Shown here: positions 1,171 through 47,157 of the stretch, piece after piece | Numbering within the stretch: the first letter of the stretch is position 1 | Layout of the letters: the number at the start of each line of letters is the position of its first letter | From: a virus | Virus record (IMG/VR): IMGVR_UViG_3300050581_000221 | DNA: 64,000 nt | Direction: 5' to 3' (one strand) | Translations under genes and position numbers: made by a program | The notes under the pieces: generated by a model | The model's input: only the letters and a program-made list of their open reading frames with translations | What the model was told of the DNA's origin: nothing | The model's database searches: none

Positions 1171-1626
1171 GTGAAGCGGTGCCCGGCGTGTGGACAGGAG
1201 AAGCCCCTCAGTGAGTTTCATTACCGCAACAAGGCAAAGGGGTATCTCAAGACAAGGTGCAAGGTTTGCGAGCGTGACGCTGTGCGTCGGCGGACATTGC
1301 AGATGTCTTCGGATGAACGACGCCTTGATAACCGGAGTGGTCACTACAAGTCGCAGTATGGCATGACGATTGAGCAGTACCAAGAAATGCTCAATGCTCA
1401 AGGCGGCTGTTGTGCGATTTGTGGCACGGGTGAGCCTGGACGAAGAGGGAACCTGCATTTCTGTGTTGACCACGACCATATCACCGGCAAGGCGCGTGGA
1501 CTGCTTTGCAACAACTGTAATCTAGGTCTGGGTCGCTTTCGAGACAGCCCGAAGTTCCTTGAGCAGGCGGCGGGCTACTTGCGACACCACATTGGAACCA
1601 ATCATCAACCAAAGGAAGAACCATGA
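1171..1626 (+). CDS. Endonuclease VII-like (T4 gp49-type) junction-resolving/HNH-type nuclease
   Basis: Motifs CPACG, CKVCE and DHDHITGKARGLLCNNCNLGLG match the Endonuclease VII fold; GTG start chosen at 1171 (151 aa, close to T4 endo VII size); the track start at 985 would overlap the upstream gene by 180 nt. Confidence 0.65.
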   Translation: MKRCPACGQEKPLSEFHYRNKAKGYLKTRCKVCERDAVRRRTLQMSSDERRLDNRSGHYKSQYGMTIEQYQEMLNAQGGCCAICGTGEPGRRGNLHFCVDHDHITGKARGLLCNNCNLGLGRFRDSPKFLEQAAGYLRHHIGTNHQPKEEP

Positions 1627-2315
1627 ACAAGCTGCTCCTGAGTGTGCTGTGCTTGCTCGCCGTCTTCGCGGTGGTTGTGCCCTGCCTCGGCGATACCGTC
1701 AACGGTGTCCTGGCCGAAGATCGCGTGGTCAACCTTCCGCAAGACGCCGGCAAGTGGCATGTCAGCGTGGTCGGCAATGCGACCGATCCCCGCTACAACG
1801 AGATCGTGGGTTGGTTCGACACCAACGCCAGTCTGAAGAAGCTGAAGAACCAGGTTCATTTCTGCCCGGTCACCACGGGTACGGCGATCTACCAGGCCCG
1901 CTACTCCAGCAACGTGAAGGCCCTGCCGACCGTGCGGTTGCAGAAGCCGGACGGCACCGTGGTCTATGAGGCCGCTGGGAAGAACATTCCCATGACGGCG
2001 GCTGGGCTGAACGGCGCGCTGGCCGGCGCGGTCAGTACGGCCTCGGGGCTACGCCCGGTCCTGCCTTGGCGGAGGGAAATGGAACGCCGGTGCCCTGGCC
2101 CGTGCCCGAACCCTCAGCCGAATCCGCAGCCTCAGCCTGATCCCGAGCCGCAGCCGATCGACGATGGCGGGACGCCCAACGTCGATCCCGAGCCGGTCGA
2201 GAGCACTGTTCCGTGGGGCGTGCTCCCCTTGCTGTGTGTCACCGGCCTCGCGGTCGGCCTCGCGTGCGGCTACGGCAGACAGTTGTATCAAAAGCTGCAC
2301 CCGGCCGTGAAGTAG
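1623..2315 (+). CDS. Secreted Pro/Cys-rich protein with N-terminal signal peptide and C-terminal transmembrane anchor (u-spanin-like topology)
   Basis: ATGA overlap with the upstream gene; hydrophobic N-terminus MNKLLLSVLCLLAVFAVVVPC; CPGPCPNPQPNPQPQPDPEPQP linker; C-terminal TM helix VLPLLCVTGLAVGLACGYG. Confidence 0.5.
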   Translation: MNKLLLSVLCLLAVFAVVVPCLGDTVNGVLAEDRVVNLPQDAGKWHVSVVGNATDPRYNEIVGWFDTNASLKKLKNQVHFCPVTTGTAIYQARYSSNVKALPTVRLQKPDGTVVYEAAGKNIPMTAAGLNGALAGAVSTASGLRPVLPWRREMERRCPGPCPNPQPNPQPQPDPEPQPIDDGGTPNVDPEPVESTVPWGVLPLLCVTGLAVGLACGYGRQLYQKLHPAVK

Positions 2316-2316
2316 C

Positions 2317-2347
2317 GTCCCGTTTGTCCCGTTTCTGCCTCGTTTGA
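2317..2347. promoter_or_regulatory. Three direct CCGTTT(G/C) repeats at roughly 10-bp phasing in the intergenic region
   Basis: gtCCCGTTTGtCCCGTTTCtgcCTCGTTTGacc seen directly; lies between a stop codon and the RBS of the next gene. Confidence 0.2.
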
Positions 2348-2393
2348 CCATTCGGCTGAACGACAGCCATTCCCAGTACACCGGAGAAGAACA

Positions 2394-2819
2394 ATGAACC
2401 CCATCGTCGTGATCTGGATTCTCGCAGTCGTCGTCGCCGTGCTCGTGGGCCGCGAAGTCGGCAGGTGGCTCTTCGGCGAGAACGCCAAGCTGATGCAGAA
2501 GAAGCGAGCCGCCCAAGTGCTGGCCGGCAAACTGCGGGCCGCTGGCCTCAAGTGGATTCCTGCCCTGTTGGAAGACTTCGCCGTGGGCGATGTCCAGGAC
2601 ATGGTGGAGAAGATCCACGATCTCGCCAAGCTGGTGGAGGCCGGCAGTGACGCCATCGAGAAGGAATTGGAGACGACCTACGAGAACGTCCTGGCCAGGA
2701 AGCTGGCCAGCCCCGAGGGCCTTGCCTACATCAAGGCGAAAATTGCCACGATCGAGGGCCCGGCCTCTGCGCCGGCAGCCGAGACTCCTGCCCCGGCGGC
2801 CCTGCCCGCGAAGTCGTAA
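2394..2819 (+). CDS. Type II membrane protein with N-terminal TM helix and coiled-coil ectodomain (holin/i-spanin-like)
   Basis: RBS GGAGAAG; N-terminal TM IVVIWILAVVVAVLVG; charged helical remainder; Ala/Pro-rich tail. Confidence 0.45.
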   Translation: MNPIVVIWILAVVVAVLVGREVGRWLFGENAKLMQKKRAAQVLAGKLRAAGLKWIPALLEDFAVGDVQDMVEKIHDLAKLVEAGSDAIEKELETTYENVLARKLASPEGLAYIKAKIATIEGPASAPAAETPAPAALPAKS

Positions 2820-2926
2820 GACCTTCTCGATGCTCTTTCACGTCAGCCCTGTGGCCACACGCGGGGCTGATTCTCCGGTGGCTCCCGGGCGCTCCGCGAG
2901 CCACCCGAGAATCGGAGAACCTGACG

Positions 2927-3265
2927 ATGATTCAACACCTGCTGTTTGGGATTGCCGCGTTGACGTTGCTGGCCGGTTGCGAGAATCAGCCGCCCAAAGA
3001 GCAACACGGCTGCGTGCGGCCGAAGGTGATTGCCTTCACGGCCGCCTGGTGCGGCCCGTGTAAGCAGGCGAAGCCTGTCCTGGTTCAGGTGAAGGCAGCC
3101 GGCGTCGATGTGCAGGTCGTGGACATTGACGAACACCCTGATATGGCTCGGCGATATGGCGTCACGAGTGTGCCGACGTTCTTCGTCTATGTCTGTGGGA
3201 GGAAAGCAGTGCGGACCCAGGACGTAGCCGTAGTCGTGGCCCTCACGCGATTCGGGTGCAAGTGA
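2927..3265 (+). CDS. Thioredoxin-family lipoprotein (periplasmic thiol-disulfide oxidoreductase)
   Basis: Lipobox LLAGC followed by the thioredoxin active site WCGPC; RBS GGAGAA. Confidence 0.7.
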   Translation: MIQHLLFGIAALTLLAGCENQPPKEQHGCVRPKVIAFTAAWCGPCKQAKPVLVQVKAAGVDVQVVDIDEHPDMARRYGVTSVPTFFVYVCGRKAVRTQDVAVVVALTRFGCK

Positions 3266-17100: not shown

Positions 17101-17977
17101 CTACCAGAAGGGTCTGGAAGGTCTGCCTTTCTGGATGAACGCGGCGGCCAAGGCCAAGGGTGCGATCCTCGGTGGCGGGGACATCCAGAAGGAAACGAAG
17201 GCCCTGGCCGACCTGATTGCGCAGTTCCGGCAGTTATCCCAGACCGGTGGCAAAGGCTTTGGGCTAACGGAATACGAGGAGTTGCAGAAGAAGGCCACGG
17301 CCGTGCTCGCCAGTCCCACCACGACTGGATGGGACCAGAGTTTCATCACGAACCAGATGGCCAACTTGAAGTTTCTGGCCGAGCAAGCGGAGGCGATGAA
17401 GAAGTTGCAGACGCCGCAAGGCCAGCCCCGCGACCTAGAGGCGGAGTTGCTGAAGGCCCGGCAGGAGGCCGAACGCCTCAGGGAATTGATCGACAAGCTG
17501 AGGCCACAAGCGGCGACCGAGATGGGGCAAGGCGCGCAGGCGGCCCAAAACGCCTTGAGCGCGATCCCAAGCATGGCGGGCCTGGCCGGCGACATCCAAG
17601 AGGCGGCCACGGCCATGTGGGACTTGGCCGCCGCTTCGTGGAGTGTCCAGTCCCCGCCGCCCATCACCGCCGCCAAGGGCCGGACGGTGTGGAACTTCCT
17701 GGCCTTCGGCGGCCCGGCCCAGGGCACGGACGTAATACCGGCGATGCTCTCGCCGGGCGAGGTGGTCATCAACGCCGCCTCGGCACGGCGGTTCGCCGCG
17801 CAACTGACCGCCATCAATGCCGGCGTTCAGCCGGTCTACCGCAGCGAGGGCGGCAGCGTCACCAACATCGGTGACATCAACGTGAACGTAACCGGCGGCG
17901 GAACTAGCCGCCAGACGGCTAGGGAAATCGCCGCTGAGATTCGACGCGAATTGCGGCGCGGCACGGCGACCCTGTAA
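14162..17977 (+). CDS. Tail tape measure protein (TP901-family core)
   Basis: 1271 aa; long coiled-coil; core region KFSTKISEIQTIAPRIDRNF...EIANMAREFNFPLPDVAEATYQTIS typical of the TP901-type tape measure domain; C-terminal MLSPGEVVINAASARRFAAQL. Confidence 0.8.
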   Translation: MADETIVNRLGFSVEDALRELQRLDSALQSSGTAFQTFGERINAWNSQSDAALSRMKDMASAASRLANSMAKMGNGAATPAAPAAAAPASKLWLPSDVSEEIQKANQNMTNLGDTATRAGEKMRQAGEHGKKAGHDAGEAAKKAHEHTKDWTVTWETLTRVVMTQAIVRALSQIRDLLRESVDEALKFSTKISEIQTIAPRIDRNFQGLSKEIANMAREFNFPLPDVAEATYQTISDQFTTAAQRADIMTAAAKLARVGVMDLNEAAQLLTGTLNAYGMASSQADIVAAKFFQTVNLGRVRGAELTPIIGRIVPIANELGVSLDEVNSSMAALTISSMKPAEAATAFRSALSALIKPSEQMQKEMAALGYATPQLAVKAEGLQGIFLKLKDTTDENVAAMAKLFLNIRGLNAEARLTGEGAEKVAEAMKAMTDPNLTDSFNEMVKVFTSTDAQQYTKELNKFQVTLATEVGPELVKFLKTLLDAAGGADGLASAIKSIATSLTSLAELLAPVGGLLALFSLRGKLAGMAGFKGVVFNNVVAPLTMAAWTVDYLDSQMASMLDNANAKFRKDVEEIVAAQKKAAQTRLDAEMKVYDEAGRRLAQYAAEVRRALNVQVEQTRKANEELVVSSRTTMQAMITAREKVVQQFRAAAQDANKAAEDSMKRQADAQAKLDDLLFKRRLEERQKYDDYFKKPEVTSDMYGRRALELAQQAASLLAKAETPDQERTAQAIFQRAAAYAQEAEQIAKGTENEWLRKRAADTVEDIIRKQIAAEKELQANSAQRASAAARAAAHEQERVDRMKVLMKGILEDLDLFDKKGQKEPKVTAALSEDLKVKMAEFKKQWMEGTANLNLDEALKFDDLQRRVKTALEGGVSEAEVQKLFAAPKTIDDFRAQIEAGLNKKAVDIAILMPVASPELAKKLLAEMPLPDRDKYIQQQNTAYEKQSELVKKLEGEQQTLTDGTTRQKAAVGSLAANMEIYQKGLEGLPFWMNAAAKAKGAILGGGDIQKETKALADLIAQFRQLSQTGGKGFGLTEYEELQKKATAVLASPTTTGWDQSFITNQMANLKFLAEQAEAMKKLQTPQGQPRDLEAELLKARQEAERLRELIDKLRPQAATEMGQGAQAAQNALSAIPSMAGLAGDIQEAATAMWDLAAASWSVQSPPPITAAKGRTVWNFLAFGGPAQGTDVIPAMLSPGEVVINAASARRFAAQLTAINAGVQPVYRSEGGSVTNIGDINVNVTGGGTSRQTAREIAAEIRRELRRGTATL

Positions 17978-18006
17978 CCCCTTTTGTGAAGCAGAGAGGA
18001 AAACCC

Positions 18007-18615
18007 ATGAGCGTCAGTCGAATGAGTGTTGGGCAGAACGCGGGTTGCAGCATGGTCCGCGCCCGCAAGGCCGAAGATCAACTCCAGGCGCGAGGCCGGT
18101 TCGTGGTCGAACATTTTCGCAAAGGCGAGAAGATCGGCCATTACGAGTTCCCCAACGGGATCACCAACGAGGGCAAGAACAAGCTCTTGGACGTGATGTT
18201 CCACGCCCAGTCGGCCATCACGACCTGGTGGCTGGGCCTGATCGACAACAGCGGCTATAGCGCGCTGGCCGCCGGAGATACCTACGCCAACATCAATCAG
18301 GCCGGCAACGGCTGGGATGAGTTCACCGACTACACCGACGCCGGCAACGGCGGCAGCGCCAGCACCCGGCCCGAGTGGACGGAAGGCGCAGCGTCCGGCC
18401 AGGCGATCACCAACGGCAGTCCGGTGGTCTTCGACATCACCGACAGTGGAACGGTCAAGGGCTTATTCCTGGTGGGCGGGGCAGCCAACGCCCAGAACAA
18501 GGGCGACTACCAGGCGGCCGGGGCTGTGCTGTGGGCCACGGCCCTGTTCGGCACAGGCGACGTGCCGGTCAATGCCCAGGACCAGTTGAAGGTGACCTAC
18601 ACCGTCAGCGCGTAA
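18007..18615 (+). CDS. Hypothetical tail protein (203 aa)
   Basis: RBS AGAGAGGAAAA; follows the tape measure; terminator-like hairpin downstream. Confidence 0.4.
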   Translation: MSVSRMSVGQNAGCSMVRARKAEDQLQARGRFVVEHFRKGEKIGHYEFPNGITNEGKNKLLDVMFHAQSAITTWWLGLIDNSGYSALAAGDTYANINQAGNGWDEFTDYTDAGNGGSASTRPEWTEGAASGQAITNGSPVVFDITDSGTVKGLFLVGGAANAQNKGDYQAAGAVLWATALFGTGDVPVNAQDQLKVTYTVSA

Positions 18616-18634
18616 TCGGAGACTCCCTCGCCAC

Positions 18635-18690
18635 AGGTCGGGCGGGGTCTTCTACCAGGAAGTCCCGCCCGGCCTTTCTTTCCCTTCCTT
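18635..18690 (+). terminator. Rho-independent terminator-like hairpin
   Basis: ggtcgggcggggtcttc-taccag-gaagtcccgcccggcc followed by tttctttcccttcctt. Confidence 0.4.
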
Positions 18691-18705
18691 CGCTGAGGAA
18701 TCGCG

Positions 18706-19686
18706 ATGGCCTACGAACGATTTGCGAACGGCGGTCTCTCTTCGCTGGACGCCGGCATCGACAACGACGATCTCACGTTGACCGTGAAGTCGGCTGTCGG
18801 ATTCCCCACCGGCGGCAACTTCCGCATCATCGTGGACAACGAGATCATGCTGGTTACGGATGTGCAGGGGAAGACCTTCACCGTCACGCGGGCGCAAGAG
18901 GGCACCAGCGCCGCTTCCCATGACGCCGATGCCGCTGTCTTTCACGTCCTTACGGCCGGTGCCTTGGCTCAACGCGATAGCGACCAGTTTGCCACCGGCG
19001 CAGTGGCGAACCGTGACGCTGCCGGACAGGCGGGACGGCTCTATCTGCCGACCGATGGCTATATCGCCCGCGACAGCGGCGGCCTCGAATGGGAGCGGAT
19101 GCCCTTTTGGCGGTTCACTCCGCCCAGCGCCGGAGACTTCACTTGGGTCAACCAGGGTAGTGCCACTGTGACGGATCGTAAGGGGGTGATGGTCCTGGAG
19201 ACGCCGAGTGTGGCATCGGGCGAGAACCTGCGGTGTCTTGTCAAGTCCGCGCCGGCGACCCCTTACACGATTACCGTCGCCTTGCTGGCTCACAGCCCCA
19301 TCTACACGACTGGCTACACGCTTCCGCACTACGGCATCTGCCTGCGCGAGAGCGGTTCGGGCAAGTTGCTCATCTACGGCTTCGGCTATAACAGCTACCC
19401 GTTCCGCTTCCAGTACGCGCAGATGACGAACCCCACGACGATTACCACTGGTGGAATCGTGGACACAACCGCCCCCCGGCATTGGCCGCTTTGGCTGCGC
19501 GTCAGTGACGACGGCACCTATCGGCGGGTTTACGTCTCGGGGGATGGGGTCCGTTTTCAGCCTGCGGTGTCTGCCGAGTCCCGCACGGCGTTTCTCACGG
19601 CCGATCAGGTGGGCGTGTTCGCCAACAGTTGGAAGAACACCTACGTGCCGCGCGTCATTTCTTTCTTGCATTGGAGCGAGTCCTGA
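18706..19686 (+). CDS. Tail fibre/receptor-binding-like protein, paralogue 1
   Basis: Shared N-terminal module (GGNFRIIVDNEIMLVTDVQGKTFTVTRAQEGTSAASH...AAVFHVLT) with the next two genes; conserved internal PTDG and W(V)NQGSAT segments; divergent C-terminus. Confidence 0.5.
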   Translation: MAYERFANGGLSSLDAGIDNDDLTLTVKSAVGFPTGGNFRIIVDNEIMLVTDVQGKTFTVTRAQEGTSAASHDADAAVFHVLTAGALAQRDSDQFATGAVANRDAAGQAGRLYLPTDGYIARDSGGLEWERMPFWRFTPPSAGDFTWVNQGSATVTDRKGVMVLETPSVASGENLRCLVKSAPATPYTITVALLAHSPIYTTGYTLPHYGICLRESGSGKLLIYGFGYNSYPFRFQYAQMTNPTTITTGGIVDTTAPRHWPLWLRVSDDGTYRRVYVSGDGVRFQPAVSAESRTAFLTADQVGVFANSWKNTYVPRVISFLHWSES

Positions 19687-20669
19687 TGGCTGAGCAATTC
19701 AAGAACCTCGCGAGCACCACGCTCAACGGAGCGATTGACGATTCGGTCACCACGATTACCGTCGCCAGCGCGATGGGCTTCACGGGCGGCGACTTCCGCA
19801 TCCTCGTGGATAGCGAGATTATGAAAGTCACGGCCGTGAGCGGCTCGGACCTGACGGTCGCACGGGGCGCGGAGGGGACGAGTCCGAGTTCTCACGCTAA
19901 TGGCGCCACCGTTCGTCACGTCCTGACAGTCGGCGCGTTGGACGCCCACGACCAGAATGATCTAGTGGTCCGGGACGCCTATACCAGCAAACCCGCTGCC
20001 GGCGTGCCGGGGCGTATCTTTCTGCCCACCGATGGCATCTTCTTGGAGCGCGACAACGGCTCGGCGTGGGAGAAGTTCGGCCCGATCTGGCCGATGATCC
20101 CTCCGCAAATCTCGGACTTCCCGACCTGGGTGAACCAAGGCTCGGCGACCGTCATGGACAACAAGGGGGCGATTTGGTTTGAATCGCCGTCCGTGAGCGG
20201 CACCAACTACCGGCTGCGGGTGAAAGCCTATCCCAGCCCGCCGTTCACGGTGGAAATGGCGTTCATGTGTCTCCTTACCCCGAACACCAGCAGCTATCCC
20301 GGTGCCGGACTCGTCATCCGCGATGATGTGTCGGGCAAGTTGCAGCACTACGGTGTCTACGACACAAGTGGCAAGATCGGGGGCATCAATCGTCCCAGTC
20401 CCACGGGCAGTGCCAGCGCCATTACGGGTTGGCCTGGCTCTGGATCACTTGACCAGACGGAATCGGGTCTGGTGTGGGTCAAGTACGAGGACGACAACAC
20501 CAACCGCAAGATTTCGATTTCCACGGACGGCTACTCGTGGGTGCAGATGGTCAGCCTCTCCCGCACCGACTACCTGACACCGACACAAATCGGAATCTAC
20601 CTTCACGCGCCTCAGACCACCCCTGAGAGCAACCAGGGGGCAACCTTCTTTCATTGGAAACAAAGCTAA
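19686..20669 (+). CDS. Tail fibre/receptor-binding-like protein, paralogue 2
   Basis: ATGA overlap with paralogue 1; N-terminus GGDFRILVDSEIMKVTAVSGSDLTVARGAEGTSPSSH; same internal motifs. Confidence 0.5.
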   Translation: MAEQFKNLASTTLNGAIDDSVTTITVASAMGFTGGDFRILVDSEIMKVTAVSGSDLTVARGAEGTSPSSHANGATVRHVLTVGALDAHDQNDLVVRDAYTSKPAAGVPGRIFLPTDGIFLERDNGSAWEKFGPIWPMIPPQISDFPTWVNQGSATVMDNKGAIWFESPSVSGTNYRLRVKAYPSPPFTVEMAFMCLLTPNTSSYPGAGLVIRDDVSGKLQHYGVYDTSGKIGGINRPSPTGSASAITGWPGSGSLDQTESGLVWVKYEDDNTNRKISISTDGYSWVQMVSLSRTDYLTPTQIGIYLHAPQTTPESNQGATFFHWKQS

Positions 20670-21649
20670 TGGAAACCTTCGCCAACCAGGCCGTCACCAC
20701 GCTCTCAACCGCCATCAGCAGCGTGACCGCCACGAGTTGCACGGTCGTTGATGCCACGGCGTTCCCCGCCACCGGGAACTTCCGCATCAAAATCGACAGC
20801 GAAATCCTCATTGTCACGGCTCGCGCGGGCAACACCTTTACCGTGACGCGCGCGGCTGAGGGGACCACGGCGGCTACGCACGCCAGCGGCGCAAACGTCA
20901 TTCATCTTTTGACCAAGGGCAGCCTGGAGGCGCGGGTCGCCAACCGCTTCATCTCTGATGTCTACGCCAACAAGCCCGCCGCTGGAGTCAAGGGACGTTT
21001 GTTCCTGCCTACGGACGGACTGTTCCTGGAGTACGACGACGGGGCGGCTTGGCACAAGTACGGGCCGTACCGGCGGCTCAAAGCGCCGCCCGAGACTGGC
21101 TGGTCCTGGGTGAACCAGGGCAACGCCACGGCGACGTACATTGACGGTCGCGTGGTCATTGAAGACCCCGACCTCGATGCCGCTGATCCGCAGCTTCGCC
21201 TCTACGTCCGACCCGCGCCGCAATGGCCGGCGACACTGACGGTGGCGTATCTCTTCAATGGGATTGGCCCCGACACGCCACGCATGGGTTTCTGCATCCG
21301 CCAACACAGCCCCGGCATCAGCTATGACGGCTACATCGGTGCGTGCGGTGTCTTTCTGGGAAGTACGCAATGGCAGTCGTATGGCCAGTGGCTCACTTCT
21401 CCGACAAGCACGAGTTCGAGCTGGAGTTGGGACGATTACTTCCCTCCCCAACGGCTCATTTGGACGCGCTTCGAGATTTACGGCGATAGAAAGCGATTCT
21501 ATCTCTCCGCGGACGGCGTGAATTTCATCAAGGTGAAGGACGACAGCATGGGCAGCTATGCAATGCCCAATCAGGTCGGTATCTTCATCGACCCGACCGA
21601 CAACAACCAGCCTGTCTCCCTGTCTCTGGTGCATTGGGAAGAGAACTGA
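20669..21649 (+). CDS. Tail fibre/receptor-binding-like protein, paralogue 3
   Basis: TAATG overlap with paralogue 2; N-terminus TGNFRIKIDSEILIVTARAGNTFTVTRAAEGTTAATH; same internal motifs. Confidence 0.5.
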   Translation: METFANQAVTTLSTAISSVTATSCTVVDATAFPATGNFRIKIDSEILIVTARAGNTFTVTRAAEGTTAATHASGANVIHLLTKGSLEARVANRFISDVYANKPAAGVKGRLFLPTDGLFLEYDDGAAWHKYGPYRRLKAPPETGWSWVNQGNATATYIDGRVVIEDPDLDAADPQLRLYVRPAPQWPATLTVAYLFNGIGPDTPRMGFCIRQHSPGISYDGYIGACGVFLGSTQWQSYGQWLTSPTSTSSSWSWDDYFPPQRLIWTRFEIYGDRKRFYLSADGVNFIKVKDDSMGSYAMPNQVGIFIDPTDNNQPVSLSLVHWEEN

Positions 21650-21652
21650 GCG

Positions 21653-24211
21653 ATGGCCCAGACCGGCAAGCTCGGCACCGTCGATTCCCAACTGGCGAAT
21701 CTGCAACTGGCGTTCACGACTGCCGATCCGGCCCTGCCTTCGGTCACGACGGAGAGCGGCCGGTTCGGTGGGCAGTTGGGAGAAGTGGTTCTCGGCCTCG
21801 GCGGGATGATTGGCGCAAGCGTCATTCACCTTGCGGCCGAGACCGTGCTTGCCGCTGCGCAGACAGCGGACCCTGCCCCAACCTTCGCGCCCCATGCCTC
21901 TCCGCTCTGGGCGTTGGGCGGTCAAGACTGCCAATTGGGCGATACCGAGCTGGCCTTCGCCGGTGCGGACGCCGAGCCGCCCACGATTACTACCCAGAGC
22001 GGCCGGCTTGGCGTGCAATTGGGCGGTTTGGTCCCTGGCCTCGGTGGGCTGGTCGGCGCGGGCGTCATTCACCTCTCGGCCGAGAGCCTGCTGGCGATCG
22101 CGCAGACGGTCGATCCCGACCCAACGTTCGCGCCTCATTTGTCTCCCGCCTGGGTCTTGGGTGGCCGAGACGCCCAGCTTGGCGCGATCGAACCGGCGTT
22201 CGCCGGTGCCGAGGAGGGGCGGCCGGAGACTGACGACCAGACCGGCCAGCTTGGCACGCTCAATTCGCTCCTGGGCAACATGCGGCCCGCCCTGGGCGAG
22301 CAAGAGGGCGGCGGCGGAGCCAACATCCTCTACGCCAGCGCCGAGAGTGACTTGTTGCTCTCGACTGATGCCGGCACGAGCGCCGTGCGGACCTGCGCGG
22401 CTTCTAGCGCACTGGTCCTGTTGGACGCTGCCGGGCGCAACAATCTCCTAAGCGGGGCCGCCGAGTCTACCGTCAGCTTGGGCGTGGCGGCCGACTTCAC
22501 GGTCGCGCGGGCGGCCGAGGCCGAGAGCACGCTGGCGCTGGTCGATGCCGCCGGGCGCAACAATCTGCTCAGCGGAGCGGCCGAATCTCCGATCAGCCTG
22601 GATGTAGCGGCTGGTTTCACGGCCGCATGGGCGGTGGCGGGCGAAAGTACGCTTGTCCTGACGGATGCGGCGGCCAATATCGGCGGCCAGCTTATCGAGG
22701 CGGCAGCCGAGTCCACACTGGTTCTGGACGTGGTGGCCGACTTCGCGGTCGCGCGGGCGGCGGCAGCCGAGAGCGCACTGGCCTTGGCCGACGCAGCCGG
22801 CCGCAATGATCTGCTCAGCGTCGGCGCTGAGTCCGCGATCAGCCTGGATACGGCGGCGGAGTTCGCGGTGGCACGGGCGGCAGCAGCGGATAGCGCGTTG
22901 GCCTTGGCTGATGCGGCGGGCCGTAACAACTTGCTTAGCGCCAGCGCCGAGTCGGCACTCAGTTTGACCGTCGAAGCGGCCCGCGTCTTGCCGGCCGTTA
23001 TCGACGTGGCGGCCGAGTCCGCGATCAGCTTGACCGGGGCCGCCGGGCGAAATAACATCATCGCTGCCGCAGCCACAAGCACCTTGGACCTAACCAGTGC
23101 GGCGACGTGCATTCATGTTGTCCCCACCTTGGTCAGCGCCGAGTCGGCGGTCAGCCTGGACACGGCGGCGGCTGCCTCGGTCGCGCGGACAGGATGGGCC
23201 TGGGATTGGATTCCTCTGTGGGACTGGGCGACCGTCACCGTTGTACGAAAGGTTGCCGCCCAAAGCCCCTTGGCGCTTGTGCAGACCGAAGTAACCGCTC
23301 GGCCGTGGTACTTGTCGGTTGCGACTCCGGTTCAGAACGTCACGGAGGAGTACGATCCACAACTTGACAGGATGGTCGAGCGGATCGAGGGTCTGCAAGA
23401 TGTAGCGAGCGTGGCCTTGCCGCGGTCTCTGACGATCAACCAGCCGATTCCGCTGGGGCAGGCGGCTTCGGTTGTCAAGGTCAAGGCGACGGCGATCGAC
23501 GTGTCGGCGGAAAGCGTCCTGGACCTGTTGGGCGAAATCCGCACCAACCAGTTGGGAAACGCTGGCACCTGGTTGGCGTTCACGCAATCGGCTGCCGTCG
23601 ATAGGTGCAAGCTCGTTCGGTCGGCGTTGGCATTGACCGCCGAGGCCGCCGTGGCGCGGAGTGGTCAGCGGGGTGCAGTCTCGTCGCTCGGATTGCATCA
23701 GTCGGCGACGTACTATCTGGTCTCGGCGGGCGTCCTTCAGCGGTATCACCCGTTTGTCGGCGCGGGGGAAGTGGGGGCTTTGACAACCCCGCCGCTTTCC
23801 CTTGAGGGCCCACGCCCCGGCGTCACGGCCTCGTTCCAATTGGTCTACCCGGCAAGCGGCCCCACTACCGACTCGGTGACGCTCCGGGCACCCAACTTCG
23901 GCAACAAGGACCGGCTCGGCTTCAACCGAGTGCTCCGCGAGACGCGCGGCGGGACGCTGATCGTCTTCGCCGATCCGATCTGGCCGAAGATACAGACCCT
24001 CGTGCTGAACTTCTCCGGCCTCACGAGCGATCAGACCCAGCAGTTACTTGCCTTCCTGGACGCTCATCTTGGCGAAGAAGTGGGCGTCTACGACTGGGAG
24101 CACCGCTACTGGACCGGGGTGATTACTACCCCGACCGAGCCGGTGGTCCAGGACGGCCACGACCGCTTCTCGGCCAGTTTTGAGTTCGAGGGCGAGTTGG
24201 TCCCGGCATAA
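21653..24211 (+). CDS. Repeat-rich tail protein with lambda gpM-like C-terminal domain
   Basis: 852 aa; 2.5 copies of an ~81-aa repeat; six ~40-aa Ala-rich tandem repeats; C-terminus LVLNFSGLTSDQTQQLLAFLDAHLGE...HRYWTGVITTP...FSASFEFEGE resembles the lambda gpM C-terminus. Confidence 0.5.
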   Translation: MAQTGKLGTVDSQLANLQLAFTTADPALPSVTTESGRFGGQLGEVVLGLGGMIGASVIHLAAETVLAAAQTADPAPTFAPHASPLWALGGQDCQLGDTELAFAGADAEPPTITTQSGRLGVQLGGLVPGLGGLVGAGVIHLSAESLLAIAQTVDPDPTFAPHLSPAWVLGGRDAQLGAIEPAFAGAEEGRPETDDQTGQLGTLNSLLGNMRPALGEQEGGGGANILYASAESDLLLSTDAGTSAVRTCAASSALVLLDAAGRNNLLSGAAESTVSLGVAADFTVARAAEAESTLALVDAAGRNNLLSGAAESPISLDVAAGFTAAWAVAGESTLVLTDAAANIGGQLIEAAAESTLVLDVVADFAVARAAAAESALALADAAGRNDLLSVGAESAISLDTAAEFAVARAAAADSALALADAAGRNNLLSASAESALSLTVEAARVLPAVIDVAAESAISLTGAAGRNNIIAAAATSTLDLTSAATCIHVVPTLVSAESAVSLDTAAAASVARTGWAWDWIPLWDWATVTVVRKVAAQSPLALVQTEVTARPWYLSVATPVQNVTEEYDPQLDRMVERIEGLQDVASVALPRSLTINQPIPLGQAASVVKVKATAIDVSAESVLDLLGEIRTNQLGNAGTWLAFTQSAAVDRCKLVRSALALTAEAAVARSGQRGAVSSLGLHQSATYYLVSAGVLQRYHPFVGAGEVGALTTPPLSLEGPRPGVTASFQLVYPASGPTTDSVTLRAPNFGNKDRLGFNRVLRETRGGTLIVFADPIWPKIQTLVLNFSGLTSDQTQQLLAFLDAHLGEEVGVYDWEHRYWTGVITTPTEPVVQDGHDRFSASFEFEGELVPA
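21758..22330 (+). repeat. About 243-bp (81-aa) tandem repeat, 2.5 copies, inside the tail protein gene
   Basis: Repeat units SGRFGGQLGEVVLGLGGMIGASVIHLAAETVLAAAQTADPAPTFAPHASPLWALGG / SGRLGVQLGGLVPGLGGLVGAGVIHLSAESLLAIAQTVDPDPTFAPHLSPAWVLGG. Confidence 0.6.
22410..23130 (+). repeat. Six tandem ~120-bp repeats inside the tail protein gene
   Basis: Peptide unit LALVDAAGRNNLLSGAAESxISLDVAAxFTVARAAEAES recurs with variation; nucleotide period about 120. Confidence 0.6.
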
Positions 24212-24231
24212 CCTCTGGCGAGGAGAGGCCC

Positions 24232-24630
24232 ATGTTCACGCTTACAGCCCCTTATCCGCTTTTGCAGACCACGACGCTGCTGCCTAATCCGCAATTTAGC
24301 GATCAGGAGGGCCTGACGGCGACCGTGACCCGCAAGCTGGCGATGGACGGCACCCGTTACACCTACGTCAAGCGCAAGGGCGACCGCCGGAAGCTGAAGT
24401 GGACCTTCCGGCTGATGCGCAACAAGGGCCTCGAATTGCGGGCCTTCCTCTTCGCCTACTTCGCCTCGCCAGTGAGGATCATCGACCACAACGGGCGGGT
24501 GTGGATCGGCAACTTCACCAACAATCCGTTCGAGTTCGACACTGCCCAGAAGGCCGGGCCGGCGATCAGCCCGATGCCGCGCGGCGAGGCCCAGATGATC
24601 GAACTCGAATTCGAGGGAGTCGAGCAGTGA
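24232..24630 (+). CDS. Lambda gpM-like minor tail protein
   Basis: 132 aa; ELRAFLFAYF...HNGRVWIGNF...EFEGVEQ resembles lambda gpM (EATVLESFLEEHGG...VEFSAEFEQV); RBS GGCGAGGAGAGG. Confidence 0.5.
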   Translation: MFTLTAPYPLLQTTTLLPNPQFSDQEGLTATVTRKLAMDGTRYTYVKRKGDRRKLKWTFRLMRNKGLELRAFLFAYFASPVRIIDHNGRVWIGNFTNNPFEFDTAQKAGPAISPMPRGEAQMIELEFEGVEQ

Positions 24631-27521
24631 GAAATATATCACCAGCCGGATTGGCGAAACTGGCGAACCGCTACGGCAACGAACCCATCACCATCATTGA
24701 GGTGGACTGGGTGGCCGGGAGCACCGTGTGCTATGCCGACCGCACCGTGGGGACGATTCCGGGCCGGATCGTGGAGGTCGGCGACCTGGATAACGTGGTC
24801 AACGTGAGCAACAGCAGCGGGTCGCAGTCGCTTGCTGTCACGCTGGACGACACGGATGGTTCGATCAAGGCCATCATGGACGCCCACGACGTTCACAAGC
24901 GGACCTGCCGGGTCTACCAGTATTTCTCGGGCCTTGATCTGGCCGACAAGTTTCTGCTCTTCAGCGGCAAGGTGAGTTCGCCCATCAGTTGGAGCGAGCG
25001 GGACCGGACGGTGAAGTTTACGATCCTCTCGCAACTGGAAGACAAGGAGATCGGCTTCTCTGCCGAGGAAGGCCAGTTCCCTTACCTGCCGGCAGACATG
25101 GTGGGCAAGGCGTGGCCGATGATCTTCGGCAAGGTGGTCAACTGTCCGGCACTCCAGGTCAACAAGGCGGTCACGGGCACGACGCTCACCGGCGTAGGTA
25201 TCCTCAGCGGCATGGACTTGTGGGCCTCGTTGTCGGACGGTGCCGACGACTCGGAATTCACCATGAGCCTCATGCAAATGGTGGTTGAGCGGAATCACTA
25301 TGCTGAGGTGAAGGATTGCTGGGCACCCGCGTTTCACCCGCCGGTAGACGCCCAGAAGGCGGCAGAGCTTCAGCAGCGCGTTGACTCGCTCAATCAGCAG
25401 ATCAACGCCGCCGTGGCCCGCCGCGACAAACAGCGGGCTTGCGCTTTAGCCCGCCGGCAGCAACAGATCGACGAGGCTTTCGCCCAAGGGGAAGGCGAGA
25501 ATCCCATTCGCATCCTGGGCGGCGAGGACTTTCCCCAGGGGCAGACTTTGACCATCAACATCAACGGCGGTCTGTTTACCGGGCACTTTGAGGGCGAGTT
25601 GTTCCGTGTCCAGAGCCGGCAGCACCCGGCGGACGATGCCACGGCCGCCGATGCCTATGCGGAAAAGACCCAGGAGCCGGCTGTCTGCCTGGAGCCGACA
25701 CAGACCCGGTACTATCGGTACGAGGATGAGATTCCGCCAGGCTGCGGTGCGCGGCCGTCTTGGCAGAAGACGATTCTTCACTACGGCGTGATAACGACGA
25801 TCAGCCAGGCCACCACGCACCAGATGGACACCGAGCCGGTGGCCCAACATTTCTGGGTCGATCCCGGCGCGTCGGTGAAGATCGCCAGCGACGAGCCGAT
25901 TACCTACATCGTCTCCATCGTGCCCGGCACTGTCTTGGCGGTGAAAGCCTACAAGCAACTCACCGGGGAACGGCGGCTGGTGGACGTGCCCACCGATCTC
26001 TACAGGGTCGAAAGCCATGCCTACGGGTCGGTGACCGCCGTGCAGATCGTCGTCAACAAGCCCCTCTCGTCCATCACGGATCAGGGATGGAGCGATGATC
26101 TCTACGTGACCATTCAGTCGAGCGTCGGCCCGGACACCGTGAACATCCTCAAGTACCTGATCGCCAACTACACCGATCTGACGTGGGATGCCACGTCGTT
26201 CAACCATGTCCAGGAGAAGCTCCAGCCATTCCCGGCGAACTTCCCGATCTTGGACCGCAAGAACGCGATCCAGGTGTTGCAGGAGATCGCCTTTCAGGCC
26301 CGCTGCGCCATCTGGCTCAGTAACGGCGTCTTCTACCTCAAGTACCTGCCCGAGGAGCCGACACCAGCCGGCACGATCACCGTGAGCGACATCGACGCCG
26401 AAAAGGGAATCGAGGTGGAGCTAACCAGTACGGAAGACATCGTGACCAAGATGGTAGTCAAGTGGCGGCTGAGTTGGGCGGACATCTCGGACCAGCCCAA
26501 GGACAAGGCCGAGAAGACGATCATCCTGCGGCACAACGTCAATAAGTACGGCACTCAGGAGCAGGAGTACGACTGGTACATCTACAACCAGCCTGACATC
26601 GTGTACAAGTGCGCGACGTTCTGGCTGATTCGCAAGGCGAAGACCTGGAAGCGGATCAAGTTCAAGACCTTCTTGAACAAGTTGAACCTGGAGACCTTCG
26701 ATGCCGTGACGCTGGACTTCGACCAGTCCTATGTGGCCAACGGGCCGGTGCTGGCAATTGTGGAGAGGGCCAACTACAACTCGGCGGACAACTGCGTCGA
26801 TTTCGAGTGCCTAGTGCCGGTGCTGGCCGGCACGATGGAGCCGTACCACTTCTTCTGGCCGGCGGCGCTGCCGCAAACGGACACCTGGCCGCCCGCCAAC
26901 GAGATCGCGGCCGGGTGCGCCGGAGGAGACGGGATCGGGGCGGGCGCGACGGGCAATTTGCCGGTGGGCGACACGACGACGATCCCGGACGGCAGCGTGG
27001 TCTTCGTCGGCGGCCCCAATGTCGTCTTCCGCGCGCAAAGCGATTGGGGTGACAATACGCCTACCGACGTGGGCTTCACAGCTCAGCCGGTTGTTGATAC
27101 GGCCACGTACATCAATCTTTCGCCCGGCTCGAAGCCGCGATTGAATCTGCGGACCTACCCCCGGCGGAGTCTGCCGGCCATCATGCCGGCTGCTTCGCCA
27201 GCCAGCGCGATCACGGTCGATATTCACCAGACCAAGATTCTCGATACGTCAGGAAGTGAAACCAAGGTCGCCTACCTCTCCTCGATTCTTCACGGCATCA
27301 ACGAGGACGGCAGCCTGACCATTGATCGTGGGGCGCTGGTGGCGGACGACGCGCATTCTGACGGGCAGCCATTGTCCGATGTGCTGAAGAATGGCGACGA
27401 GTATCTGGCGATCCGCACGGATGTTTCTATCTGGGACGCCGAAGACGGAGAGCACGAGTTTCATTTCCAGTACGACGAGGAAACCGAGAGGTTCGGCGCA
27501 GGGACGGCGTTTCTGCAATAA
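24627..27521 (+). CDS. Large tail protein (964 aa), possible tail-tip/host-specificity protein
   Basis: GTGA overlap with the gpM-like gene; RBS GAGGGAG; position after the M-like gene analogous to lambda L/K/I/J. Confidence 0.4.
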   Translation: MRNISPAGLAKLANRYGNEPITIIEVDWVAGSTVCYADRTVGTIPGRIVEVGDLDNVVNVSNSSGSQSLAVTLDDTDGSIKAIMDAHDVHKRTCRVYQYFSGLDLADKFLLFSGKVSSPISWSERDRTVKFTILSQLEDKEIGFSAEEGQFPYLPADMVGKAWPMIFGKVVNCPALQVNKAVTGTTLTGVGILSGMDLWASLSDGADDSEFTMSLMQMVVERNHYAEVKDCWAPAFHPPVDAQKAAELQQRVDSLNQQINAAVARRDKQRACALARRQQQIDEAFAQGEGENPIRILGGEDFPQGQTLTININGGLFTGHFEGELFRVQSRQHPADDATAADAYAEKTQEPAVCLEPTQTRYYRYEDEIPPGCGARPSWQKTILHYGVITTISQATTHQMDTEPVAQHFWVDPGASVKIASDEPITYIVSIVPGTVLAVKAYKQLTGERRLVDVPTDLYRVESHAYGSVTAVQIVVNKPLSSITDQGWSDDLYVTIQSSVGPDTVNILKYLIANYTDLTWDATSFNHVQEKLQPFPANFPILDRKNAIQVLQEIAFQARCAIWLSNGVFYLKYLPEEPTPAGTITVSDIDAEKGIEVELTSTEDIVTKMVVKWRLSWADISDQPKDKAEKTIILRHNVNKYGTQEQEYDWYIYNQPDIVYKCATFWLIRKAKTWKRIKFKTFLNKLNLETFDAVTLDFDQSYVANGPVLAIVERANYNSADNCVDFECLVPVLAGTMEPYHFFWPAALPQTDTWPPANEIAAGCAGGDGIGAGATGNLPVGDTTTIPDGSVVFVGGPNVVFRAQSDWGDNTPTDVGFTAQPVVDTATYINLSPGSKPRLNLRTYPRRSLPAIMPAASPASAITVDIHQTKILDTSGSETKVAYLSSILHGINEDGSLTIDRGALVADDAHSDGQPLSDVLKNGDEYLAIRTDVSIWDAEDGEHEFHFQYDEETERFGAGTAFLQ

Positions 27522-27593
27522 GGCAAGTGCGGCTGTGCAAATGCCCAGGTGGAAACCCACCTGGGCATTTGCCTTCCTGGGAGGAGGCATCTT

Positions 27594-28169
27594 ATGGAAA
27601 GCGCGTTTGCTTGGCTGAATCAGCTATTCCAGGCCATTTACCAATTCTTCCCTCGCATCCTAATTGTGCGGGCGACTCACGGTGGGGTCAAATGGGTCAA
27701 AGGCAAACACGTCAAGTTGCTGGTGCCGGGGTTGCACATCTATTGGCCGCTTGTGACCGACGTGGAGGTAGTCGTGACCGCCCGGCAGACGCTCGCCATC
27801 CCGGACCAGGTGATGGCCACCAAGGACGGCAAGAAGGTGGTCGTGAAGACCTTGGTGGTCTACAAGATTCCCGACCCCGTGCGGGCCATCGGCAAGTTGA
27901 ACTGGGACGTGGACACCACGATCAACGACCTGACGCAATCCGCCGTGGTCCGCGTAATCGCTACGCACGCCTACGACGAGATCATGGCGGGCATCCAGGA
28001 CGAGAGCCTGACGAAGACCCTGACGAAAGAAACTCGCCGCGAACTGCGGCAGTTCGGTGTCCACGTCACCCGGTGCAAGCTGGTGGACTTCGCGGACTGT
28101 AGGGTCTTCAAGTTGCTCACTTCCCAAGCGGATCGCCAGGGGATGGCTACGCATCAGTTCTACCAGTAG
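27594..28169 (+). CDS. SPFH/band-7 (stomatin/prohibitin-like) domain membrane protein
   Basis: RBS GGGAGGAGG; N-terminal TM AFAWLNQLFQAIYQFF; SPFH-like core ILIVRATHGGVKWVKGKHVKLLVPGLHIYWPLVTDVEVV...QVMATKDGKKVVVKTLVVYKIPDPVRA. Confidence 0.6.
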   Translation: MESAFAWLNQLFQAIYQFFPRILIVRATHGGVKWVKGKHVKLLVPGLHIYWPLVTDVEVVVTARQTLAIPDQVMATKDGKKVVVKTLVVYKIPDPVRAIGKLNWDVDTTINDLTQSAVVRVIATHAYDEIMAGIQDESLTKTLTKETRRELRQFGVHVTRCKLVDFADCRVFKLLTSQADRQGMATHQFYQ

Positions 28170-47082: not shown

Positions 47083-47157
47083 TGTAGCGTAGCTCAGTCG
47101 GTAGAGCGGGTGCCTGTTAAGCACTGGGTCGCTGGTTCGAGTCCAGCCGCTACAGCC
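47083..47157 (+). tRNA. tRNA-Asn (anticodon GTT)
   Basis: Cloverleaf folded by hand: acceptor TGTAGCG/CGCTACA, U8, D arm GCTC-AGTCGGTA-GAGC, anticodon arm GGTGC-CTGTTAA-GCACT, T arm GCTGG-TTCGAGT-CCAGC, discriminator G; CCA not fully encoded. Confidence 0.8.

Follow-up and report, generated by a model that had tools for sequence, protein, structure and literature searches.

The 64,000-nucleotide window analysed here carries, within its tail module, three consecutive genes of almost equal size, and the question they raise is what three such similar proteins do side by side in one phage. The first-pass annotation had described a run of 326-, 327- and 326-aa tail-fibre-like proteins, translationally coupled and arising by triplication, and open reading frames of precisely these lengths and positions are present; we refer to them as A, B and C (Table 1). 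B and C start with ATG codons at 19686 and 20669, and the stop and start codons overlap by one base at both the A/B junction (TGATG) and the B/C junction (TAATG), in agreement with the proposed coupling. C is separated from the next gene, encoding an 852-aa protein, by 3 nt. A megablast search of 50,697 phage records returned no near-identical genome. The related prophages have Planctomycetota MAGs as their hosts, and the trio probably comes from a phage or prophage of Planctomycetota that, in our preferred reading, is temperate and siphovirus-like.

Table 1. Features of the tail module around the three paralogous genes (positions in the window).
Feature	Coordinates	Strand	Basis or remarks
Tape measure protein, 1271 aa	14162..17977	+	16 PHROG tape-measure families, best E 1e-29
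Conserved 202-aa protein	18007..18615	+	Always between tape measure and putative fibre genes
Terminator-like element, GC-rich hairpin (18635-18675) and U-rich tract	18635..18692	+	Between 202-aa gene and A
Putative fibre paralogue A, 326 aa	18706..19686	+	N-anchor, neck, ConA-like head
Putative fibre paralogue B, 327 aa	19686..20669	+	AlphaFold2 model, Foldseek, 8jov profile match
B, N-terminal anchor, aa 10-79	about 19713-19922		Predicted model
B, neck, aa 82-145	about 19929-20120		Helix and PTDG
B, ConA-like beta-sandwich, aa 147-326	about 20124-20663		
Putative fibre paralogue C, 326 aa	20669..21649	+	Motifs, PHROG matches, orthologue comparison
852-aa protein	21653..24211	+	N-terminal/central repeats, conserved C-terminal domain
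852-aa gene, repeats	about 22336-23190		120/126-nt period, 'AES.L.L' units (DNA repeats D1-D3)
852-aa gene, 160-aa C-terminal domain	23720-24208		Strongly conserved, across the wider clade
Conserved 132-aa tail-module protein	24232..24630	+	96/66/69% to orthologues; syntenic throughout clade
Distal tail protein, about 964 aa, last conserved gene of module	24627..27521	+	86/42/43% to orthologues; syntenic

The three proteins are paralogous along their whole length. In tblastn comparisons they are mutually 37-41% identical over ~325 residues (E 1e-48 to 1e-59), with identities of 48-52% in residues 1-90, 44-56% in residues 91-155 and 23-32% in residues 156-327. The motifs that had been pointed out, FRI.(V/I)D.EI..VT, TV.R...EGT....H......H(V/L)LT, LPTDG and WVNQG(S/N)AT, are all present, and the full-length match, together with the confident fold described below, indicates that the paralogy is not confined to low-complexity sequence. 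The shared N-terminal module is therefore real; the C-termini, which had been called divergent, are diverged copies of one domain within a similarity that spans the full length. All three end in HW, and they are not unrelated modules. At the nucleotide level the paralogues are only ~55% identical, and no long DNA repeats were found among them in the region examined (17900-24300); the triplication is therefore old. Searches for gene-conversion tracts found none, nor are there near-identical DNA tracts among the three genes. We favor a history in which the trio probably arose once, when a gene present in one copy, in an expandable slot, was long ago triplicated in tandem.

A homologue search with paralogue B returned 180 homologues, and a profile of 69 family members was compared with the PDB. 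Residues 4-118 matched residues 5-129 of the 'Putative tail fiber protein' 8jov (E 1.2e-8), a 439-aa chain identical (100%) to the product of the tail fibre gene in Ralstonia phage GP4. The N-terminal module also matches PHROG tail-fibre families (E 1e-5 to 4e-13), and BFVD places the same domain at the N-termini of the tail fibres of BcepMigl, DC1, Gamede and others. The tail-fibre-like nature ascribed to the proteins is borne out by these matches, which show that the N-domains of the trio are homologous, over ~115 residues, to the GP4-type tail fibre anchor. The GP4 record encodes this N-domain at two places, in more than one gene, and several kinds of fibre are borne on a single GP4 tail (PMC11445570, PMC12609058). 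In this podovirus the fibres are suspended from an Ig-like adaptor ring where head and tail meet (PMC11445570). In contrast, the phage analysed here has a long tape measure, carries these genes in a tail-tip module and has a distal ConA-like sandwich; the distal part of the GP4 fibre also differs from the trio, the Gamede homologue being annotated with a peptidase S74 domain.

To the C-terminal side of the anchor, the AlphaFold2 model of paralogue B (pLDDT 90.4) predicts a neck and a compact ConA-like beta-sandwich, with no long coiled-coil or beta-helical shaft of the type usual in fibres. Foldseek matched the C-domain with probability 1.0 to the DUF1349 proteins 3o12 and 3mep (E 5.5e-8 to 1e-6, TM to target 0.66-0.72), a GH43 C-terminal domain, CBM66 and the lectin ERGIC-53, the ConA-like matches together spanning E 5e-8 to 1e-4. 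The earlier guess of a lectin or jelly-roll C-domain thus finds a counterpart in the predicted ConA-like fold. All of these matches share the common beta-sandwich fold at only 12-17% identity, and all are cellular proteins rather than parts of a virion. At the sequence level, Pfam gave no family at threshold; DUF1349 (PF07081) scored 14.7 bits against a cut-off of 32.4 and gave any match at all in just one of the 69 family members. A weak profile match of the neck to the designed beta-propeller Scone-E was rejected, being the sum of three chance-level stretches.

A viral counterpart of the head was found in PHROG 19068, a family of unknown function whose HMM covers the C-terminal two-thirds of A, B and C (E 3e-21, 4e-24 and 1e-8, respectively). 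The homology extends over the C-terminal ~200-230 residues (25-32% identity by tblastn). In mycobacteriophage Thibault the PHROG 19068 member is gp38, a stand-alone 267-aa protein without the anchor domain, and in the Caulobacter phiCbK-like phage CcrRogue it forms the C-terminal end of a 1579-aa tail protein. Both are encoded among tail genes and both are uncharacterised; unlike the present locus, neither phage has a tandem trio.

The structural matches bear directly on the possibility that the proteins degrade glycans, acting as ConA-like glucanases or lyases in the manner of tail depolymerases. The ConA-like superfamily does include GH16 glucanases and some lyases, and alginate-lyase entries occur among the weaker Foldseek matches. 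However, the best matches are non-catalytic (DUF1349, the GH43 accessory domain, CBM66 and L-type lectins), the GH16-type E.D..E motif is absent from A, B and C, and no Pfam enzyme family was matched; we regard an enzymatic role as extremely doubtful.

The reading we favor, and consider moderately probable, is that A, B and C are three short, lectin-headed tail-tip fibres of the receptor-binding type that bind glycans on the host surface. In this model, the N-terminal beta domain would anchor each chain to the virion, a neck made of a helix and the PTDG beta-hairpin would link anchor and head, and the ConA-like beta-sandwich would most likely bind a host surface glycan. The one-base overlaps would couple translation, and A, B and C should therefore be made in similar amounts. 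We predict that the three proteins dock on a tail tip formed by the conserved proteins encoded next to them, where their three different heads would be displayed for adsorption.

The locus was then compared with its relatives. The same trio occurs in ~35 related viral contigs and Planctomycetota MAG prophages, always in the order A-B-C, and in a tree of these ~35 loci A, B and C form three monophyletic clades. In six loci the A-B-C block occurs twice in its entirety, with A', B' and C' each nested in its own clade. In more distant relatives that share the tail module, this slot contains 1 to 5 copies, so that copy number across the wider clade ranges from 1 to 6, and independent triplications are found in other lineages (L042 and L053). 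Chains of 604-618 aa in which two complete units are naturally fused also exist. A PHROG scan of the gene contexts of distant single-copy homologues (L006-L008) was too sparse in annotation to be informative.

This distribution raises the question of the oligomeric state. One alternative is that A, B and C form an obligate A:B:C heterotrimer through their homologous N-domains, giving a single pseudo-threefold fibre that derives from a homotrimer and carries three different lectin heads. Equal gene lengths and coupled translation would suit such an assembly, as would the constancy of order and number in ~35 loci, the amplification of the block as a whole with each copy staying in its own clade, the repeated origin of triplication in L042 and L053 and the existence of two-unit fusions. 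Similarly, the divergence of A, B and C proceeds in step (r 0.83-0.92), and the anchors should still be compatible, since A, B and C share the same residue at 26 of 30 strongly conserved N-domain positions. However, shared inheritance alone explains correlated divergence, and the presence of 1, 2, 4 or 5 copies in phages with the same module fits independent units better. We therefore consider the heterotrimer unlikely. If it were nevertheless correct, the six-gene loci would encode two such fibres, and the repeated triplications would mark a path, taken more than once, by which receptor-binding proteins of phages pass from homotrimer to heterotrimer. The conserved anchor positions were also considered as a possible mark of distinct docking sites for A, B and C; only 4 of the 30 differ between paralogues, which is uninformative.

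In line with the lectin-headed fibres that we prefer, the two parts of the proteins diverge at different rates among orthologues. The N-terminal half is 76-80% identical between orthologues and the head 48-59%. Among the three paralogues the head of A evolves most slowly; C combines the best-conserved N half (mean 80%) with the head that diverges fastest (mean 48%), and against the L001 orthologue C is 90% identical in the N half and 57% in the C-domain. Compared with the close relative L023, the trio is 91-96% identical across all domains. As a whole, the trio is conserved to about the same degree as the major capsid protein, and the 852-aa, 964-aa and tape-measure proteins are less conserved.

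The faster divergence of the heads, most marked in C, and the variable copy number in the wider clade are features expected of a host-range cassette, and to this extent the original proposal of a receptor-binding protein triplication is supported. An exchangeable unit, with C-terminal modules swapped horizontally or rapidly diversified, is a different matter, and we judge it highly unlikely. The three orthologue clades are clean and their order is fixed, the trio shares 92-96% identity with its counterpart in the closest relative along its whole length, as do the other tail-tip genes, and the 852-aa, 964-aa and tape-measure proteins all vary more than the trio. No swaps of distal modules were seen among the trio orthologues. 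Near-identical DNA tracts, inverted repeats and template repeats also speak against the cassette by their absence: DGR template repeats and invertible segments were sought at 17900-24300, where the only long direct or inverted repeats are those internal to the 852-aa gene. One candidate for a domain swap did come up, in L034/L035, where the third gene looks chimeric in tblastn; this apparent L035 chimera proved to be an ordinary paralogue-C orthologue. Instead of a hypervariable unit, the data point to a fixed and ancient trio, which we think is probably a vertically inherited set in which the anchor half is constrained and the lectin heads drift faster.

Conservation at the level of the capsid is unusual for receptor-binding proteins and counts against the fibre reading, as does the compact, shaftless build of the predicted model. 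Both would be natural in a baseplate or tail-tip scaffold without a receptor role, in which the sandwich would only mediate contacts between proteins, as happens in some evolved distal tail proteins. The fixed number and order of the genes would also agree with a scaffold, as would their position close to the tape measure, the usual place of core tip proteins, and their stronger conservation than that of the large neighbouring tail proteins. In contrast, the N-domain is specifically one of tail fibres, the C-domain is the fastest-evolving part of the proteins, and in the Caulobacter phages the C-domain forms the very C-terminal end of a giant tail protein. Furthermore, 1 to 6 copies in relatives with the same core module are hard to reconcile with a fixed scaffold. 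Based on these results we consider a scaffold quite unlikely and retain short lectin-headed fibres as the favored reading.

Phages such as CBA120, which has four tailspikes, and the multi-depolymerase Klebsiella phages encode several receptor-binding proteins in adjacent genes; the attachment modules at their N-termini are related, the distal heads differ, and the proteins are displayed together on one tail. Their tailspikes are large, enzymatic, beta-helical proteins that vary strongly between close relatives and whose N-termini build a branched scaffold, whereas the members of the trio are small, lectin-like, equal in size, old, fixed and vertically inherited. Tandem fibre paralogues with shared anchors are thus a known theme; the trio opens no new category and is real, though as multi-fibre arrangements go it is fairly ordinary. 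Its interest lies in the host group and in the family. A literature search found no description of tail proteins of Planctomycetota phages, whose receptor-binding proteins appear to be uncharacterised so far, and the trio provides concrete candidates, in which a recognisable fibre anchor is joined to three putative heads of lectin type. The protein family is very large (3,721 clusters at E ≤ 1e-30), is unannotated and has no Pfam model, and one experimental characterisation would therefore annotate thousands of phage genes. Moreover, the slot, with its 1 to 6 copies and, in one lineage, its fixed, block-duplicated trio, can serve as a clean natural series for studying how receptor-binding heads are gained by phages and whether fibres from paralogous genes assemble together.

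The genes on either side define the setting of the trio. Its location after the tape measure, on whose orthologues PF10145 is recorded, and the 202-aa gene is kept in every relative; the position that had been singled out as atypical is thus conserved. The naming of the downstream neighbour could not be confirmed. The gene presumably meant by 'gpM-like' is the 852-aa one, for which no Pfam, PHROG or PDB match was found. An apparent resemblance of its C-terminal domain to lambda gpM was rejected, as hhalign gave a probability of 2% and two PDB profile searches were empty. The length of this protein differs among relatives. Neither the 852-aa nor the 964-aa protein gave more than chance-level matches in PDB sequence searches, the 964-aa protein matched no family in Pfam, PHROGs or the PDB, and no family match was found for the 132-aa protein. 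The 202-aa protein (its open reading frame listed from GTG 17986 as 209 aa) is 93/61/63% identical to its positional orthologues, and an identical 202-aa protein, P0121, exists. Its profile matched the PDB entry 26la_U, 'Structural protein', which is ORF007 of the Pseudomonas podophage KPP25 (E 3.4e-5); the AlphaFold2 model (pLDDT 79) matched nothing in the PDB below E 0.1 by Foldseek. It may be a docking or distal-tail protein. Finally, the hairpin of the terminator-like element between the 202-aa gene and A has a predicted MFE of -40.1 kcal/mol (z -2.98), and a hairpin with a U-tract lies at the same site in six related loci (L001, L002, L003, L023, L025 and L047), with stem and loop sequences that differ.

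The three tandem fibre genes, here A, B and C (together, the trio), lie exactly where the first-pass annotation had placed them and encode proteins of 326, 327 and 326 aa when the ATG starts at 19686 and 20669 are used. Both junctions consist of a one-base stop/start overlap (TGATG and TAATG), an arrangement typical of translational coupling, and only 3 nt separate C from the next gene. The shared motifs quoted in that annotation are all present and invariant. Over their full length the proteins are 37-41% identical (tblastn E 1e-48 to 1e-59), with identities of 48-52% in residues 1-90, 44-56% in residues 91-155 and 23-32% in residues 156-327. The C-termini, which had been called divergent, are thus a single domain in diverged copies. 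The genes are ~55% identical in nucleotide sequence and no long repeats common to the three were found at that level; the triplication is old, without ongoing homogenisation.

The trio belongs to a siphovirus-type structural module on the plus strand, which also includes genes for the large terminase, portal, scaffold and major head protein. The G+C content of the window is 63%, and no phage similar to it at the DNA level was found in a collection of 50,697 phage records. None of the core tail-tip proteins could be assigned; of the position earlier called atypical, it can be said that the tape measure gene is usually followed by that for the distal tail protein and that this order is not evident around the trio. 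Using a structure model and Foldseek, the upstream 202-aa protein was not recognisable as a distal tail protein, and its sole link is a profile match (E 3.4e-5) to a structural protein of Pseudomonas podophage KPP25. Nor could the proposed gpM-like identity of the downstream gene be verified: the conserved C-terminal 160 residues of the 852-aa protein had no match in Pfam, PHROG or PDB and gave an hhalign probability of 2% against lambda gpM.

Features of the window in and around the tail module
Feature	Coordinates	Strand	Remark
Tail-tube-like gene, 249 aa	12038-12787		
Tape measure, 1271 aa	14162-17977	+	
202/209-aa gene	17986/18007-18615	+	After tape measure
Hairpin, then U-rich tract	18635-18692		Between 202-aa gene and A
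Fibre gene A	18706-19686	+	
Fibre gene B	19686-20669	+	
Fibre gene C	20669-21649	+	
852-aa gene	21653-24211	+	3' of trio
Tandem repeats	22336-23190		Inside 852-aa gene
132-aa gene	24232-24630	+	After 852-aa gene
~964-aa gene	24627-27521	+	After 132-aa gene
SPFH/Band_7 gene	27549-28169		Directly after last tail gene
tRNA-Asn (GTT)	47083-47157		Single; non-structural part

In PHROG, residues 1 to ~90 match many tail-fibre families and residues ~95-320 match phrog_19068, a family without assigned function; no Pfam family was found for the fibre proteins. A profile of 69 family members gave a single significant solved structure, 8jov_1 "Putative tail fiber protein" (residues 5-129, E 1.2e-8), a chain that agrees at 100% identity with the GP4 tail fibre gene; in this Ralstonia podophage, three fibre sets are mounted on an adaptor ring (PMC11445570; PMC12609058). 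The AlphaFold2 model of paralogue B, built from a 69-sequence alignment, is confident (pLDDT 90.4, pTM 0.77) and comprises a beta domain (10-79), a helix (82-93), beta hairpins across the PTDG region and a beta-sandwich (147-326). Foldseek comparison with the PDB showed that the sandwich resembles ConA-like modules, namely two DUF1349 proteins, 3o12 and 3mep (E 5.5e-8 to 1e-6, TM to target 0.66-0.72), the GH43 xylosidase C-terminal domain, CBM66 and the ERGIC-53 lectin. A GH16-type catalytic motif is absent. Among viral models, the N-domain is also N-terminal in proteins annotated as tail fibres, including those of Burkholderia phages BcepMigl and DC1 and of Ralstonia phage Gamede. A homologous C-domain forms the end of a 1579-aa tail protein in Caulobacter phage CcrRogue; in mycobacteriophage Thibault it is a stand-alone protein, gp38, encoded among tail genes. 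The domain matches and the ConA-like fold therefore bear out, at the domain level, the earlier picture of an anchor plus a lectin or jelly-roll head.

Paralogue B has 180 homologues in a large protein collection, and many of them come from Planctomycetota MAGs. The reference genomes in which a scan found the lineage are MAGs of Thermoguttaceae and Planctomycetaceae; the contigs concerned measure 1-4 Mb, indicating that relatives are present as prophages. Three related contigs have the same gene order, with three genes of 325-335 aa. Their positional orthologues are 86/62/66% (A), 79/52/59% (B) and 73/55/60% (C) identical to those of the window, compared with only 32-42% between paralogues. Among the other proteins compared there, the major head protein (55%) and tail-tube-like protein (60-62%) are better kept than the 964-aa protein (42-43%), the 852-aa protein (only 34-40%) and the tape measure (27-31%). 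An IMG/VR scan yielded 75 loci, and every locus of the window's lineage has the A-B-C arrangement; a neighbour-joining tree built from 142 family members separates A, B and C into three clades, each monophyletic. Six loci have six genes, in the order A-B-C-A'-B'-C', with A', B' and C' each nested in its own paralogue clade; the block was therefore duplicated as a whole and has lost no copy since. Its two versions are now 61-71% identical to each other.

Over 30 orthologous trios, mean identity is 76-80% in the N half (1-155) and 48-59% in the lectin domain, the contrast being greatest in C (80% versus 48%). Divergence of the heads from the window decreases from C to B to A, as in the related locus L001 (N half/head: A 88/84%, B 89/70%, C 90/57%), and in L023, the closest relative, identity is 91-96% whichever domain is compared. 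Across pairs of loci, A, B and C have diverged in a correlated way (r 0.83-0.92), and of 30 strongly conserved positions in the N-domain only 4 distinguish the paralogues. An apparently chimeric gene seen by tblastn turned out to be an ordinary orthologue.

When neighbouring genes were mapped onto all loci, the slot (behind the tape measure and one further gene) was kept throughout the wider clade, whose module reads tape measure, 202-aa protein, n fibre units, 852-aa C-domain, 132-aa protein and large protein. The slot holds one unit in L047 and L058, two to three in L061, L065 and L059, three in the window's lineage and, as an independent triplication, in L048/L049/L053, four in L052, five in L062 and six in L025 and L027-L031; L042 has a further independent trio, and single-copy homologues occur in unrelated gene contexts too. 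The trio is a fixed set with vertical inheritance rather than an exchangeable cassette, and the host-range cassette proposed earlier survives only in a weaker sense, in that the slot has expanded repeatedly and heads evolve faster than anchors. A search of 1.84 billion cluster representatives returned 3,721 clusters at E <= 1e-30, rising to 14,845 at E <= 1e-10, the best matches being mostly single units of 307-340 aa. Three proteins from different sequence clusters (P0325, P0326 and P0329; 604-618 aa) contain two complete units; they may be true fusions, although gene calls that read through a stop would look alike. True fusions would speak for neighbouring units working in one assembly. Giant proteins from public metagenomes (P0324, 1911 aa; P0330, 7472 aa; P0323, P0327 and P0451) carry 9-34 tandem copies of the ~70-residue N-domain, so the anchor domain serves also as a repeat unit.

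The best-supported reading is that the trio encodes three short tail-tip fibres with lectin heads, produced in similar amounts and presented together, for which we infer virion location and sugar binding. The anchor half would be held by structural constraint, and the heads may be slowly adapting to host surface glycans. The three chains may form either one heterotrimer or three separate homo-oligomers. Co-assembly is favoured by the duplication of the whole block, the fixed order and equal lengths of the genes, the independent triplications and the two-unit fusions, and independent fibres by the relatives with 1, 2, 4 or 5 units. As tandem tail-fibre paralogues that share an anchor, the trio is real and clearly delimited and belongs to a known kind; the phage group is poorly studied, and the protein family very large and unannotated.

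In the related loci L036 (2554-3812) and L017 (3737-5018), one has the 202-aa gene in two tandem copies and the other has ~1.3 kb extra between this gene and A, so plasticity extends upstream of the fibre slot. The GC-rich hairpin before A is strong (~-40 kcal/mol) and, with its U-tract, occupies the same position in L001, L002, L003, L023, L025 and L047; its stem and loop sequences differ among diverged relatives while the element is kept, which suggests a conserved terminator, attenuator or mRNA-stabilising 3' end dividing the tape-measure part from the fibre and tip genes. The repeats of the 852-aa gene have a 120/126-nt period and encode 'AES.L.L'-type units, whose number varies among relatives (proteins of 694-1024 aa); short versions are conserved only in the last ~160 residues. 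Compared with L001 and L010-L012 on the one hand and L014-L016 and L023 on the other, the tape measure has a mosaic make-up: in some relatives it shares 79-85% identity with that of the window, whereas in others its centre is only ~40% identical though other tail-tip genes there are 86-96% identical, which points to recombination within the gene. The SPFH/Band_7 gene (PF01145, E 1.8e-19), a cargo or accessory gene unusual for the end of a tail module, also follows the last tail gene in a distant relative (L003, 17332-17907). The same locus has, at 1234-3046, two adjacent copies (347 and 247 aa) of the tail-tube-like gene, both 60-62% identical to that of the window.
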